Source of the DNA: Haloquadratum walsbyi C23
GTDB lineage: Archaea; Halobacteriota; Halobacteria; Halobacteriales; Haloferacaceae
Length of the DNA stretch: 6,056 nt
NCBI RefSeq assembly: GCF_000237865.1
Contig: NC_017458.1
Location: 1 to 6,056, forward strand
Direction of reading: 5' to 3'
Shown here piece by piece: positions 1,274 to 6,056 of the stretch (the first letter of the stretch is position 1; each line of letters opens with the position of its first letter). The notes under the pieces are model-generated. The model was not told where the DNA came from and ran no database searches. It saw only the letters and a list, made by a program, of their open reading frames with translations. The translations under genes and the position numbers were made by a program.

Positions 1274-2979
1274 CCGTCGAGACCGAGACCGAGGACGCCG
1301 ACGAGATACGCCGACTCATCAAGCCGCAAGACCACGAGTTTACCGCGAATTTCAATTATGATAACGGACTCGACGCATGGCTTGCCTGTGACTCGGTAGT
1401 GAAGCAACACGACGGCTCATACGAGACCGAGACCGAGGCTCTCGGCGAAACATGGGACGTTACTCTGTACTATCAAGACTCGTCTATCTTGCCACCTCGT
1501 GACGGCACGACGCCCAACGGCACGAAGATCGAGCACGACCAAATCCGTGAGTTTCGCATCCGTGTCGAGGCTCAGGACGAGCTCGGAGAGAAAAAGGCGA
1601 ACTATCATATCCGTCCCCGCTGGCGTCGTATGCGCGTCGAGACTGACGAGGGAGACCAACACGAGTTATCAATCCCTCGTACTCTTGTGAACGAACACGA
1701 CGCCATGAACGTCCGCGTCTCAGGGTCTAATATTGACTTTTGTGATTATGGCGACCTACTCATGTGTGCCGCAAGCTCTCTCGGCGTGAGTGCTCACCAC
1801 TTCCGCGAGTCATATCGACACGAGACCAGCAATGTTCAGGACGCCGCGAAATACGTGCGTGTCCACGAGGACGTATCTGGTCCCGTCCATGCTCGCACTG
1901 GTCCCTTAGTCTCACTTGCGCACGTATTGGAGAACGACCGTGAGGGCTATCGGAAACTCGTGCAAAACGACACCAACGAGCGAGGGCGTCAGTTAGCCGG
2001 TTATTATCATACCGCCACACTCGGTCCTCAGAGAGTCCGTGAGGTATTCCCTGATCATGCCTTGCCCGTCGAGTGCAAACACTACTACGCTCGCGAGGCG
2101 CACTCTCGACCTGACTCTGACGCTCTGGCTCACCCAAAGGTCGAAGTCGCCTATCAGACAAGCCGGACTGACGACACACTGCATCTTACCGACGAGAATC
2201 TTGCCCAACTCGACGAAGAACTCACCGAATGGCTGTATGCTATCCTCGCCGACGCCGGTCTCGACCTGAGGGCGAATGAGAACGTCTATGTCGAGGACGA
2301 ATATTTCTCAGTCGAGAACGCCACGACGACCGCATCCGTTGTCGACCTCGACCTTACCGAAGTCAGACACGAGCAAGAGTCGGTCGTCTACAAGCATCTT
2401 GCTGACGGCATGGCACCCACTGATCAGGAATGTCTCAATGTGCTCGTCTCCGACGGTGGTGCCGTGAGTCCTCAGGACCTTGCCGAGTCCACAGGACGAC
2501 ACGAAGATACTGTTTACAATTCCCTTGCGAGAATGAACGACCTCGTGACACACACCTACGGCGAGGTCTCATTGAAGTCCACATATACCAGTGAACTTGT
2601 CGCCGACGCACTTGATCAGGCACAACAAGCCGTCGATAACGCCGCTAAAACTGCCGCTGATGCCGTCCACGCCAGTAAACGAGGTCTCGATAATGCCACG
2701 AGTGCCTTTGTTGCATGGTGTGAACGATACGGCGTCAACTACAACGACAACGGCGACGGCATGATCATCGACCTCGGTCGCGTCGATAGTATCAAAGAAG
2801 TGCGTAATATCTTGCGTAGTGGCTTCGACCGCTGGTGCAAGATGAAACGAGACGCTATCACCTTCAAATCTGCAAAAGTCAAATGGGAACACGAGGACGA
2901 CGGCAAAGACCTCAATTACTTGCCGTCCTCTCCTACCGTCCGGTCTCACTCTCAACGAGCGTTTACTCTCCTCAAGTGA
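1270..2979 (+). CDS. Large acidic protein (569 aa) with C-terminal winged-helix-like DNA-binding segment; candidate replication/initiator protein (function inferred only)
   Basis: It is the longest ORF, with an ATG start coupled to the upstream stop and strong C/G third-position bias. The segment ECLNVLVSDGGAVSPQDLAESTGRHEDTVYNSLARMNDLVTHTYGEVSL (nt approx. 2416..2574) has the helix-turn-helix plus wing pattern of MarR/TrmB-type wHTH domains. The N-terminal 370 or so residues have no motif I can name. From memory, the largest forward protein of PL6-family plasmids has homologues in betapleolipoviruses; this was not checked. Confidence 0.9.
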   Translation: MTVETETEDADEIRRLIKPQDHEFTANFNYDNGLDAWLACDSVVKQHDGSYETETEALGETWDVTLYYQDSSILPPRDGTTPNGTKIEHDQIREFRIRVEAQDELGEKKANYHIRPRWRRMRVETDEGDQHELSIPRTLVNEHDAMNVRVSGSNIDFCDYGDLLMCAASSLGVSAHHFRESYRHETSNVQDAAKYVRVHEDVSGPVHARTGPLVSLAHVLENDREGYRKLVQNDTNERGRQLAGYYHTATLGPQRVREVFPDHALPVECKHYYAREAHSRPDSDALAHPKVEVAYQTSRTDDTLHLTDENLAQLDEELTEWLYAILADAGLDLRANENVYVEDEYFSVENATTTASVVDLDLTEVRHEQESVVYKHLADGMAPTDQECLNVLVSDGGAVSPQDLAESTGRHEDTVYNSLARMNDLVTHTYGEVSLKSTYTSELVADALDQAQQAVDNAAKTAADAVHASKRGLDNATSAFVAWCERYGVNYNDNGDGMIIDLGRVDSIKEVRNILRSGFDRWCKMKRDAITFKSAKVKWEHEDDGKDLNYLPSSPTVRSHSQRAFTLLK

Positions 2980-3724: not shown

Positions 3725-4051
3725 TCAGAAAAATGAGTCCACGCTGACGAATTGATGCATATACCCACGGTCGCTGTGCCAGTCCTCGCCGAGCTCGTCG
3801 GCGACCTGATCAGCCTCGACTTGCTTGGGCGGTTGATTATCTTGGAGATCGTCGAAGATGTATGTGCCGTCGTTCTCGACTAACGTCTCGTGCGTGTCTT
3901 TGTTCAATCGAAACCTATCTTCTTTCTTTGCGAGTCGGACCTCGGTGGGCTCGTCGCCGATCATGCCGTCAGGTCCGAACGACTCACTCGGCGTCCCTCC
4001 GAAGTCTTTGATCAATTGTTTCTCAATGTCTGTGTGGTCGAAGTCTGTCAT
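3725..4051 (-). CDS. Small acidic protein (108 aa), unknown function; weak PD-(D/E)xK / VRR-NUC-like pattern
   Basis: The start is taken at the internal ATG (4049..4051, MTDFDHTDIEKQ...). The upstream 93 codons of the track ORF (to 4330) are basic and mostly overlap the 3' end of the ATPase gene in another frame. The product is acidic. The segment FGPDGMIGDEPTEVRLAKKEDRFRLNKDTHETLVENDGTYIF loosely resembles a PD...E-x-(K/R) nuclease core. Confidence 0.8.
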   Translation of the reverse strand: MTDFDHTDIEKQLIKDFGGTPSESFGPDGMIGDEPTEVRLAKKEDRFRLNKDTHETLVENDGTYIFDDLQDNQPPKQVEADQVADELGEDWHSDRGYMHQFVSVDSFF

Positions 4052-4080
4052 TTGTCTGTTATTTTTTCTGAATAGCGCGT

Positions 4081-4090
4081 ATGTATTATA
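4081..4090 (-). promoter_or_regulatory. Candidate TATA-like element for the 4051..3725 gene
   Basis: The minus strand reads TATAATACAT at -39 to -30 relative to the ATG, inside the 58-nt gap after the ATPase stop. It shares an AATACA core with elements upstream of the other reverse genes. Confidence 0.3.
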
Positions 4091-4109
4091 CTGTTCAAGT
4101 GGTCGGTGG

Positions 4110-4940
4110 TCAGTCGTCGGCAGGTTGTTCGGTCGGGTTTGTCGCATCTGTGTACTTACTGACCCATGACTGCGACATATCCACGACCTCAGATACCTCT
4201 CGCGTCGAGAGACCGAGGTCTCGTGCTCGCTGGGCATCTGCCTTTTTCTGGTCTCTCTCAACTTCCTCAGGGTCGGGCTCGTCCTCTTGCAGTTCGTCGG
4301 CGTCGAAGTGCTCACTGTCGAGTAAATCATCCTTTTTCTCAGTTACCGCCTCAAAATATGGGTCGTCGTGTCTGTCGAGATTTGGAAATGGTATTCTATT
4401 TCTCGGTATGTCGTCGTAACTCTCAGTGCGCACGTCGCCTCGGTCGAATGTGCTCGTCACTTTATACGGTCGAAAGTATCCTATGGGTCTCTTGAGTGCC
4501 CACAGTCGATAATCTGCAAACCGTCGCATCCGAACATCTGCATCTGACCAATGCGGCAAGGTCGTGATTGTTACAATCCGTTTCTTGCGCATGAGTTGCC
4601 ACGACCGACCGAGATTCACGTTCTTATTACTCATCGACCGTCGTGAATCTCCAGCACCGGCACCGGCGAGTTCGTCGAGGACAATTACACTCGGTTGATA
4701 TGCGTCAGGGTGCTCTCGCCAGCGTTCAAGATATTGCTCTCCTGAGAGTGTGAAGTCGTCAGGGTGTAAGTCGTAATCGAACGCTCGTGCACACATCTGT
4801 GCTATTGCACACGCTAAGGTCGTCTTACCGACGCCTGTGCTCGCATCCTCGGCGTCAATGATCAGTCGGGCACCACCTTGCCTCGGTCCATGAATGCCAT
4901 GCATAAGGTCGTTCCAAAAGTCCGTCTCTGAGATGTGCAT
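4110..4940 (-). CDS. P-loop NTPase (Walker A/B) with acidic linker and C-terminal HTH; virus/plasmid-type ATPase
   Basis: Walker A is ASTGVGKT (nt 4821..4844, verified by back-translation). Walker B is VIVLDE (nt 4671..4688). A TITT strand follows. The linker is acidic (DDLLDSEHFDADELQEDEPDPEEVERD). The C-terminal HTH is ARDLGLSTREVSEVVDMSQSWVSKYT (nt approx. 4152..4235). The ATG lies 2 nt after the upstream gene's stop. From memory, PL6-family plasmids encode an ATPase similar to a His1 halovirus ATPase; this was not checked. Confidence 0.92.
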   Translation of the reverse strand: MHISETDFWNDLMHGIHGPRQGGARLIIDAEDASTGVGKTTLACAIAQMCARAFDYDLHPDDFTLSGEQYLERWREHPDAYQPSVIVLDELAGAGAGDSRRSMSNKNVNLGRSWQLMRKKRIVTITTLPHWSDADVRMRRFADYRLWALKRPIGYFRPYKVTSTFDRGDVRTESYDDIPRNRIPFPNLDRHDDPYFEAVTEKKDDLLDSEHFDADELQEDEPDPEEVERDQKKADAQRARDLGLSTREVSEVVDMSQSWVSKYTDATNPTEQPADD

Positions 4941-4942
4941 GA

Positions 4943-5569
4943 TTAGATCAGGTCGGAATAATCGAAGTCTACCGCCTCGTCATCATTCTCATTCAATCCA
5001 ACGTCGAGACCGAGATCGGCGAGTACGTCATTTGCTTTTGTGAACGCCTCGTCAAATATCCGAGAATCAATCACCGCTGTCGGATGCTGTAATCCATCCT
5101 GATCAACGACCTCTCCAACACGGTCGCTAAACCGTCCGTGGTTTTTCTGGACACGTCGCCACTTGCGGTCGAATGTCGCGTTAATCTTCAACAGTTGCCC
5201 AAGCCCGTTAATATCAATCTCGTCGCCTTGTACCATGACCTCAGGACCACCACGACCGCCCATTGTTGTCCGTCGTTGCTGTAATTCAATCGTGCCGATA
5301 TGGTCCGTTGTCCACAGACTCGCATGCTCAGATCGCAGTATGATCGGTCGAATGTCCAGCAAAAACGAGTCGAGGCGAGACTTGAGTAACTCGGCACCGT
5401 CGGCATTACTCAAGTTGCCCGTGCGTACCGAGGACCGAATTTCATGTCGTGCAGTGATGTACCCATGTCTCAGATTGAGTATCTCTTTAATCCGCTTTTT
5501 CTGCACTACGTTGTCGTCGTCCGTTAGTGAGAGGCTTGTACTGTCGGCGTCGTCTTTCGTGCCCGACAT
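4943..5569 (-). CDS. Hypothetical acidic protein (208 aa), no motif recognised
   Basis: ATG start at 5567..5569 and TAA stop at 4943..4945, only 2 nt before the ATPase ATG, which suggests an operon and translational coupling. Composition is acidic with C/G-ending codons. It has a Gly-rich MGGRGGPE segment and an acidic aromatic C-terminus, DEAVDFDYSDLI. Confidence 0.85.
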   Translation of the reverse strand: MSGTKDDADSTSLSLTDDDNVVQKKRIKEILNLRHGYITARHEIRSSVRTGNLSNADGAELLKSRLDSFLLDIRPIILRSEHASLWTTDHIGTIELQQRRTTMGGRGGPEVMVQGDEIDINGLGQLLKINATFDRKWRRVQKNHGRFSDRVGEVVDQDGLQHPTAVIDSRIFDEAFTKANDVLADLGLDVGLNENDDEAVDFDYSDLI

Positions 5570-5606
5570 GTCTGCATATCTTTTGTGTATTCATTTGTAT
5601 GCACGG

Positions 5607-5969
5607 TTATACCAGATTTATGATGAGTAGCGATATGAGTAAGAATGTGATCACGGCACCACCGGCTATCTGCACTGTTCTGTCCGCTCGGTTAATGTCG
5701 TTGTACTGTCCCCTCAGTGGCTCGTCTTTGAGTATATCTGGCTTCGTGTCAGTCTCCTCAGAGGCGTCGTTATCTAACCGTGAGAGTATCTCATCGAGGT
5801 CATCCTGTATGTTCTCGACGCTTGCCTCGTCGTCGTCAGTATGATCGAGCCCTCGTCGAACTAACCGACGCATTGCTTCCGCCTCAGAGATATTATGCTC
5901 GTCCTGATATTCCTCGACTCGCCTCGCGTCGTCGGCATCGAGTCGTGTCTGATACTGTTGTCTTACCAT
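5607..5969 (-). CDS. Ribbon-helix-helix (CopG/Arc/MetJ-like) DNA-binding protein with acidic linker and C-terminal transmembrane tail anchor
   Basis: The N-terminus VRQQYQTRLDADDARRVEEYQDEHNISEAEAMRRLVRRGL fits a beta-strand, helix, turn, helix RHH pattern (nt approx. 5847..5963). A D/E-rich linker of about 55 aa follows. The extreme C-terminus TVQIAGGAVITFLLISLLIINLV is one hydrophobic helix (nt approx. 5610..5678). It is the first gene of the reverse module. Confidence 0.85.
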   Translation of the reverse strand: MVRQQYQTRLDADDARRVEEYQDEHNISEAEAMRRLVRRGLDHTDDDEASVENIQDDLDEILSRLDNDASEETDTKPDILKDEPLRGQYNDINRADRTVQIAGGAVITFLLISLLIINLV

Positions 5970-5988
5970 ATCTCTTACCTCTCACTGT

Positions 5989-6002
5989 ATACATATGTAT
6001 TC
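5989..6002 (-). promoter_or_regulatory. Candidate TATA-like promoter element (12-bp palindrome ATACATATGTAT) for the reverse module
   Basis: The perfect palindrome at 5989..6000 lies at -20 to -31 from the ATG at 5969. That position suits a leaderless or short-leader archaeal transcript. The minus strand reads GAATACATATGTATAC. A GAGAGG stretch nearer the ATG could alternatively act as a weak Shine-Dalgarno. Confidence 0.35.
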
Positions 6003-6056
6003 AACGATACGACAAACAACGTAAATACTGACTGACCAATTCGATACCTGTCGAAA

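Follow-up and report, generated by a model that had tools for sequence, protein, structure and literature searches.

R4 of the Haloquadratum walsbyi plasmid PL6B as a probable membrane-anchored ribbon-helix-helix autoregulator and plasmid tether

The window analysed here, 6,056 bp in its full length, is PL6B, a PL6-family plasmid of Haloquadratum walsbyi C23, and the gene under study is R4 (Hqrw_7007). Its relatives pLT53-7 and pBAJ9-6 show 85-87% nucleotide identity in a megablast of the window. In the published PL6 map, the replication genes F1-F3 run forward and the 'ATPase module' R4-R7 runs in reverse, both starting from a single intergenic region (PMC5974055, PMC11431627). R4 is the first gene in the reverse-strand order R4-R5-R6-R7, divergent from the replication module (open reading frame (ORF) list; PMC5974055). 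It shares with the R4 of the PL6 family the position in the module, the C-terminal transmembrane domain and the homology to the R4 proteins of pBAJ9-6 and pLT53-7. The plasmid diverges most in R4 and the region upstream of it. We think it likely that R4 is a membrane-anchored autoregulator and plasmid tether, which would act as a ribbon-helix-helix (RHH) dimer on the palindrome ATACATATGTAT upstream of its own gene. The features of R4 and its candidate binding sites are the following (aa, amino acids; nt, nucleotides):

5607 to 5969, reverse strand: R4 gene (Hqrw_7007), 120 aa plus stop codon, ATG start (ORF list, homologues and published R4; PMC5974055, PMC3119063)
5844 to 5969, reverse strand: predicted RHH DNA-binding module of R4, aa 1-42 (Pfam RHH_1 in the family, AlphaFold2, Foldseek, PDB profile, PHROG 24852)
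5679 to 5843, reverse strand: acidic linker of R4, aa 43-97 (composition, AlphaFold2, alignment conservation)
5760 to 5819, reverse strand: predicted amphipathic helix in the linker, aa 51-70 (AlphaFold2; conserved)
5679 to 5717, reverse strand: juxtamembrane motif LRGQYNDINRADR (alignment conservation)
5610 to 5678, reverse strand: C-terminal transmembrane tail of R4, aa 98-120 (TVQIAGGAVITFLLISLLIINLV), with a conserved GG pair (Kyte-Doolittle hydropathy, AlphaFold2, family conservation, group-1 tail motif)
5986 to 6001, reverse strand: candidate R4 operator, the 16-mer AATACATATGTATACA, overlapping the R4 promoter (comparative)
5586 to 5601, reverse strand: second related site CATACAAATGAATACA, candidate internal promoter or operator at -32 to -17 from the R5 ATG

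The architecture of R4 and the idea of a tether have been known for exactly this protein since 2011, when Dyall-Smith et al. described C-terminal anchors, CopG/MetJ-like N-termini and detection in membranes, and suggested R4 as a tether between plasmid and membrane (PMC3119063). The 2018 and 2024 papers of Dyall-Smith et al. repeat the anchor and the membrane detection, omit the RHH domain and report no R4 homologues outside the PL6 family (PMC5974055, PMC11431627). The lack of a signal peptide in R4 (Hqrw_6007/Hqrw_7007) is likewise published. The original prediction, made from the letters of the window, had treated this architecture as new, which it is not. Its description of the protein agrees with our results: R4 leads the reverse operon, and an RHH N-terminus, supported by Pfam scores in the family, AlphaFold2 helices and RHH matches in Foldseek, is joined by an acidic linker of about 55 aa to a C-terminal helix, which is the only membrane segment of the element. 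The new leads of this study are the breadth of the R4 family, a portable gene cassette, the co-variation of operator and beta-strand, the site in front of R5 and the virus-like tail of a sister subclade.

PL6B R4 scores 11.4 bits (E=0.34, aa 9-42) against the Pfam RHH_1 family (PF01402), for which the cut-off is 20.5. The pBAJ9-6 orthologue, named 'ribbon-helix-helix protein, CopG family' in RefSeq, scores 23.8 bits and is over the cut-off, and 15 of 34 diverse R4-family members match RHH_1 at E<=0.01. PL6B R4 itself matches the viral family PHROG 24852 with E=3.6e-12 and also a 'transcriptional repressor' PHROG. Its RHH module is composed of the beta-strand QYQTRLD, helix A (aa 12-25) and helix B (aa 29-46). 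In the AlphaFold2 models of the full-length protein and of the isolated domain, aa 1-11 are extended and are followed by helices at aa 12-25 and 29-46/48, with a predicted local distance difference test score (pLDDT) of 86-94. The N-terminus is predicted in this way to have a strand-helix-helix topology of about 45 residues.

We searched the PDB with Foldseek, using the full-length and the N-domain models, and took the outcome as consistency and not as proof. The top matches were mostly RHH folds with template modelling (TM) scores of 0.5-0.65, all at E>1, which is expected because the model is a monomer of 45 residues. They include the plant TCP domain, pRN1 ORF56 (3ft7), CopG (1ea4), PutA, MazE, AmrZ, NikR and ParD. 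A profile search against PDB sequences returned weak RHH matches only, to ArtA (E=0.0097) and DinJ. Judged by the profile matches of its members, the R4 family as a whole appears clearly to be RHH.

The linker, aa 43-97, comprises 55 aa with 19 aspartate and glutamate and 6 lysine and arginine residues and has an isoelectric point of 4.05. It is not featureless, as it contains a conserved amphipathic helix (aa 51-70 in AlphaFold2) and a juxtamembrane motif, which reads LRxQ(F/Y)xDxNxxxxxxxIxGG in the alignment and is conserved in the PL6B-like subgroup alongside the helix. Since both are conserved, the C-terminal part of R4 is not simply a hydrophobic anchor. At the end of the protein lies the hydrophobic stretch aa 98-120, which reaches a 19-residue Kyte-Doolittle mean of 2.46. 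As this mean is <=1.02 in every other PL6B protein, the R4 tail is the sole membrane-type segment of the element. It is also the lone hydrophobic segment of R4, placed at the very end of the 120 residues behind a polar and charged N-terminus, as in tail-anchored proteins. AlphaFold2 models the tail as a helix over aa 92-119, with a pLDDT of 94 over aa 111-120. The protein has two arginines, R94 and R97, in front of the helix and nothing behind it, which argues that the N-terminus is inside. The membrane location itself is taken from the literature, in which R4 was detected in purified membranes by mass spectrometry (PMC3119063). No other protein of a PL6 plasmid has ever been detected by experiment.

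The perfect palindrome ATACATATGTAT is found at 5989-6000, which is -31 to -20 from the R4 ATG and is the position expected for the TATA box of a leaderless haloarchaeal transcript. There is a single perfect copy in the window. The sole other match in the plasmid with <=2 mismatches is at 5589-5600, exactly -31 to -20 from the R5 ATG, and at least two matches occurred in just 1 of 200 shuffled sequences. The 16-mers of the R4 and R5 sites are identical at 14 of 16 bases, and ACATATGT is the core of the candidate operator. R5-R7 may therefore have a promoter or operator of their own and not be read from the R4 promoter alone. A scan of positions 5500-6056 for bacterial-type promoters and terminators found none, as expected for an archaeon. 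Inverted repeats in this region are already known from the 2018 paper, in which the centres of the 'R4 proximal inverted repeats' are given as -16 to -25 (PMC5974055).

The palindrome is conserved in sequence and register beyond PL6B. Seven divergent homologues of the (Y/H)QTRLD strand type, which come from different replicons and have 30-48% identity to PL6B R4, share in the 70 nt upstream of the gene the block A.ACATATG as the sole invariant one, at a fixed distance to the start codon. The flanks of this block vary yet stay palindromic: TGCATACAT with ATGTATGCA, GGGATACAT with ATGTATCCC and GCATACAT with ATGTATGC. Homologues with a VATRLD strand, the type of the pBAJ9-6 R4, carry the upstream repeat CATA(T/C)GTTTACA(A/T)ACGTGCAC, and homologues with an SVVSAKVP (SAKVP) strand, the type of the pLT53-7 R4, carry GGTATA-N6-TATACC. 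The comparison takes in about 14 loci, many of them related by descent, from three classes of beta-strand. In RHH proteins it is the beta-strand that reads the DNA bases. Because the operator type tracks the beta-strand class, the comparison supports binding of R4 to its own promoter.

The original prediction had named this palindrome among the candidate R4 binding sites, and of the sites that it named this is the only one to gain comparative support. It had also named the octamer CCTGATCA, for which the proposal did not hold. The octamer has 7 copies in the window against 0.27 expected, and 0 of 200 shuffles reach 7:

1 to 8, 1202 to 1209, 2050 to 2057, 3805 to 3812 and 5098 to 5105, forward strand, and 2421 to 2428 and 2613 to 2620, reverse strand: copies of CCTGATCA (window scan)

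There are also 7 copies each in pLT53-7 and pBAJ9-6, mostly at homologous positions in the F2 and F3 genes, and one in the Halorubrum virus V_ICIS4, far from its R4-like gene. The octamer is absent from all eleven other distinct elements with R4-like genes that were compared (L003-L008, L012-L021). Although it is strongly over-represented in PL6 plasmids, we rejected it as an R4 site because of this absence and of the single distant copy in V_ICIS4. The 2018 plasmid paper does not mention the octamer, which may be bound by a replication-module protein or be related to methylation or restriction.

A profile search of 5.8 billion proteins detected 90 relatives of R4, and when 1.84 billion cluster representatives were searched exhaustively with HMMER, 208 R4-family clusters were recovered at E<=0.001. 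By a simple hydropathy scan, 86 of the 90 relatives have at least one (one to three) hydrophobic segment after the RHH module, as do 126 of the 138 further cluster representatives listed (about 91%). Homologues without the tail, or a structure prediction without an RHH fold, would have spoken against the architecture of the original prediction; the tail is widely kept and the predicted fold is RHH-like. The combination of RHH module and hydrophobic tail appears to define a large haloarchaeal family, which is wider than published. Among the IMG/VR viral contigs and GTDB genomes no usable R4 or R6 relatives turned up, as the alignment had no sufficiently conserved stretch or the pattern matches were not confirmed by tblastn, and R4 and two tails of its own type (group 1) had no match or a chance match only in 50,697 phage records (tblastn). 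The 7.7-kb metagenomic contig L007 carries two tandem paralogues of R5 and two different R4-like genes, one of 139 aa at 709-1128 and one of 129 aa at 6423-6812, whose palindromes also differ (GTACACACATATGCGTAC and GTACACACATATGTGTAC). Either two related circles are joined in it as a heterodimer, or its assembly is chimeric.

The other genes of the reverse module are:

4943 to 5569, reverse strand: R5, 208 aa, always downstream of R4 in the cassette (ORF, synteny)
4110 to 4940, reverse strand: R6, 276 aa, AAA+ ATPase with C-terminal helix-turn-helix (HTH) (weak Pfam AAA and HTH matches, tblastn, preprint phylogeny)
3725 to 4048, reverse strand: R7, 107 aa, last gene of the module (61-67% identity to the PF25941-annotated genes of L006, L007 and L008)

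On contigs with diverse homologues, the R4-like gene is followed by an R5-like gene, then by an R6-like ATPase and often by an R7-like gene, as confirmed by tblastn. This cassette adjoins at least four different and unrelated replication modules, namely the PL6 type (DUF7845), a DUF1424 Rep, a 417-aa Rep and a D5-type primase-helicase. In every case the R4-like gene opens a leftward unit at a divergent promoter region. On L016 the R4-like gene lies beside a DUF1424 Rep and occurs without R5 or R6. Several of the cassette contigs are head-to-tail repeats of 4.4-4.7 kb, with a unit of about 4.39 kb in L003 and about 4.68 kb in L006, and are therefore likely to be small circles that were assembled as concatemers.

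R5 has no match in Pfam, PHROG or PADLOC. Its C-terminus is DFDYSDLI (window 4943-4966), and distant R5 homologues share this motif, for example EMDYTDLI on L006; DYSDLI is noted in the supplement of PMC11431627. The motif suggests a docking peptide for a conserved partner, which could be R6, R4 or a host factor. R6 matches Pfam AAA with E=0.0013, and its CbiA/ParA match is limited to the P-loop (aa 34-52, E=0.034). In tblastn, R6 has 41.8% identity to CDS0001 of V_ICIS4 and also matches BLv25 ORF1 and His1 gp16. These similarities place R6 among AAA+ proteins akin to spindle-shaped-virus ATPases and not among the ParA-type ATPases of segregation systems. R7 was listed as a longer ORF, 3725-4330, which is over-extended and overlaps R6. 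R7 is described as without matches in the plasmid papers; the genes of L006, L007 and L008 to which it is similar carry Pfam PF25941 (PDDEXK_16), which suggests that it has a restriction-endonuclease-like fold. PADLOC gave no match for R4-R7, and for this reason a reading of the module as a defence system is unsupported and was dropped.

A link to viruses is found in R6 and in some of the R4 tails. A 2025 preprint groups the ATPases of PL6 plasmids with those of small circular elements proposed as satellites of spindle-shaped haloviruses, and proposes PL6 plasmids as such satellites (preprint 10.1101/2025.02.15.638363). V_ICIS4 encodes CDS0061, an RHH protein with two C-terminal membrane helices, in a cluster upstream of its R6-like ATPase. 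On the opposite strand are CDS0058/59, two paralogous hydrophobic proteins with two helices, and CDS0061 lies between them and the ATPase. A profile of 120 relatives of CDS0059 matches the juxtamembrane motif and tail of one R4 subclade (e.g. 'QRAAQVGTVISLVVIAVVAFVGVLLI') at 27-50 bits, and shuffled versions of these tails (300 each) never exceed 13 bits. The subclade includes P0087 of the 4.7-kb element L006, P0106, P0163, P0062 and others, and the identity of its tails to helix 1 of CDS0058/59, with the motif RAAQVGTVIS, is 60-68% over about 30 aa in BLASTP. The likeness is one of real homology and not of composition. L006 additionally shares with V_ICIS4, besides the ATPase, a gene 68% identical to CDS0003.

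The tail of PL6B R4 itself has no similarity to the CDS0058/59 profile (2.5 bits; shuffles had a mean of 0.4 and a maximum of 6.7), and PL6B-type tails found nothing in the phage genomes by tblastn. We only infer that CDS0058/59 are capsid proteins: hhalign of CDS0058/59 with His1 VP21 and the BLv25 capsid protein gave a probability of 13% (P=0.002), and Pfam gave no His1_capsid match. Pfam was uninformative for ten other V_ICIS4 proteins, and no R5-like gene is evident in V_ICIS4. CDS0062 (24889-25224 of V_ICIS4, L009), between the RHH gene and the ATPase, has a product rich in Arg, Ser and Thr and looks out-of-frame in GC-rich DNA.

In the mechanism that we propose, the single C-terminal helix of R4 would lie in the cytoplasmic membrane with the N-terminus inside, and two RHH modules would pair at the cytoplasmic face. 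The dimer would most likely read ATACATATGTAT, which overlaps the probably leaderless R4 promoter, and the near-copy before R5, and would autoregulate the R4-R7 module by repression. Since R4 cannot leave the membrane, it would at the same time hold the multicopy plasmid there. That the bound DNA is kept at the cytoplasmic face, as the original prediction also had it, is a reasonable conclusion and was drawn in the 2011 genome paper (PMC3119063). Most plausibly, the tether would serve to bring plasmid DNA to an assembly or egress machinery that lies in the membrane and works with the R6 ATPase. The virus-type AAA+ partner, the satellite proposal and the virus-like tail of the subclade point to such a hand-off, and the lack of a ParA and of a repeat array argues against ParA-type segregation.

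Several points weigh against this mechanism. PL6B R4 by itself is under the Pfam RHH_1 threshold (11.4 against 20.5 bits), the Foldseek and PDB-profile matches lack statistical significance, and the beta-strand is absent from the AlphaFold2 model, which is a monomer prediction only. The co-variation of operator and strand is only comparative, with the few and partly related loci given above. The palindrome is placed where a TATA box is expected and could be the promoter itself, or it could serve another binder, as R6 and the product of 371-1273 on the forward strand have HTH motifs. Finally, each plasmid has one or two sites, and with about 30 plasmid copies to a genome (PMC11431627) the benefit of a tether is in question.

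An extension of the tether, and compatible with it, is that R4 is an adaptor for capsid or egress of a satellite: R4 would mark the plasmid through its RHH site, the hydrophobic tail would co-assemble within the membrane with the likewise hydrophobic capsid proteins of a helper spindle-shaped virus, the R6 ATPase would aid packaging, and the tail type would set the helper specificity. We regard this as a tentative possibility. R6 clusters with ATPases of spindle-shaped haloviruses and proposed satellites, the subclade tails are homologous to helix 1 of CDS0058/59, V_ICIS4 has its two-helix RHH protein between CDS0058/59 and the R6-like ATPase and shares the 68%-identical gene with L006, and R4-R5-R6 moves as a cassette across replicon types. 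However, the PL6B tail scores in the shuffle range against CDS0058/59, group-1 tails found nothing in phage genomes, the capsid identity of CDS0058/59 is presumptive (hhalign 13%; no His1_capsid match), and the R4-like gene of L016 has neither R5 nor R6. Furthermore, the relative pPOLA-c1 was 34-fold depleted in virus pellets (PMC11431627). A more specific version, which we find doubtful, would make the whole R4 family DNA-to-capsid adaptors, whose RHH module recognises a short palindrome of the element and whose tail mimics helix 1 of the two-helix coat or membrane protein of the helper and enters the assembling shell. By sequence comparison, one subclade tail is demonstrably a copy of helix 1 of CDS0058/59; the PL6B tail motif N-x-x-x-x-R-x-x-x-I-x-G-G would then match a still unsequenced spindle-shaped virus of Haloquadratum. 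It is predicted from this version that the tail, and not the RHH module, links the element to its helper virus, and if true it would be a new way for satellite DNA to get into the shell of another virus. The original prediction had instead combined the architecture, which stands, with the hypothesis of vesicle or bud export in the manner of pleolipoviruses or plasmid vesicles, or of DNA segregation. Pleolipovirus-like budding does not agree with the published satellite proposal for spindle-shaped viruses, and segregation lacks a ParA-type ATPase. The 2024 paper discusses membrane vesicles and lipid-enveloped particles, and its data argue against sedimentable particles; ultracentrifugation of a relative gave no sign of particles (PMC11431627).

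The RHH centromere binders of type Ib partition systems are typically small, and R4 is small too, has a specific candidate palindrome and is inherited together with an ATPase. R4 could in principle be a partition adaptor like ParG or omega, attached to the membrane, with R6 as the motor that segregates the copies, and in this context the coexistence of PL6A and PL6B is an open question (PMC11431627) and R4 with its upstream region is where the plasmid is most divergent. We hold this to be improbable, because R6 is an AAA+ protein with a C-terminal HTH and a CbiA/ParA match in the P-loop only (E=0.034), the whole plasmid has one palindrome and one site with 2 mismatches in place of a centromere repeat array, the copy number is high, and L016 has R4 without the ATPase. 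Type Ib partition was rejected, as neither an adjacent ParA-type Walker ATPase nor a repeat-array centromere is present. The gene order, a small RHH gene followed by a second gene, would also fit a type II toxin-antitoxin system with R4 as antitoxin and R5 as toxin; orthologues have weak matches to RelB, VapB and DinJ, and Foldseek found MazE, TacA and ParD. These matches merely reflect the common RHH fold, and we give this reading hardly any credence. R5 has no match in Pfam, PHROG or PADLOC, the conserved partners of R4 are R5 and an AAA+ ATPase, and the reading was rejected because no known toxin family is represented next to R4, which ends in a membrane helix where an antitoxin would have a toxin-binding peptide.

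The proposed membrane-anchored autoregulator can be compared with several known systems. CopG of pMV158 and ORF56 of the Sulfolobus plasmid pRN1 are, like R4, RHH proteins whose genes come first in an operon and have a palindromic site that overlaps their promoter. Both are soluble, measure 45-56 aa and regulate a replication gene, whereas R4 has 78 further residues with a membrane helix and heads an ATPase module. ToxR, CadC and TcpP are bacterial membrane-bound transcription factors with a winged-helix domain, one transmembrane helix and a periplasmic sensor domain. As in R4, a cytoplasmic DNA-binding domain is held at the membrane by one helix and the target DNA must come to the membrane. 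R4 differs in using an RHH module and in having <=3 residues beyond the helix, and therefore has no outside sensor. The phi29 protein p16.7 is a small dimeric membrane-anchored DNA binder with an N-terminal anchor, which binds non-specifically during replication. It resembles R4 as a membrane-anchored DNA-binding protein of a mobile element, whose DNA it localises at the membrane, and has a different fold and the anchor at the other end. In the proposed mechanism R4 would be a CopG/ORF56-type plasmid regulator made immobile, near the ToxR type and p16.7 in concept and a member of neither.

ParG and omega are likewise small RHH proteins, which bind repeats on their own plasmid and work with an ATPase. 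Their partner is of the ParA type, their site is a repeat array and they have no membrane helix; a ParA and an array were not found for R4. CDS0061 of V_ICIS4 shares with R4 the RHH module, C-terminal membrane helices and the vicinity of an R6-like ATPase, with two helices in place of one. One R4 subclade has tails homologous to helix 1 of CDS0058/59; the PL6B tail is of another type, with no detectable similarity to these proteins.

Permanent fixation in the membrane is unusual for a sequence-specific DNA binder. Salt-saturated brines are dominated by an organism in which PL6-type plasmids abound worldwide, and the role of R4 touches on how they are maintained and spread and on whether such elements are plasmids, defective viruses or virus satellites. 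The analysis provides a defined candidate operator of 12-16 bp that is present twice, and it predicts that the operator type follows the RHH beta-strand.

On the replication side of the plasmid, unrelated to the R4 palindrome, a 20-nt tandem direct repeat, TTGCAC(C/G)GTACTGTGT(C/A)A.., is found at 300-339. It lies within the small F1 ORF, shortly before the 371-1273 gene begins, and belongs to the '280-369 array' named in the original prediction.

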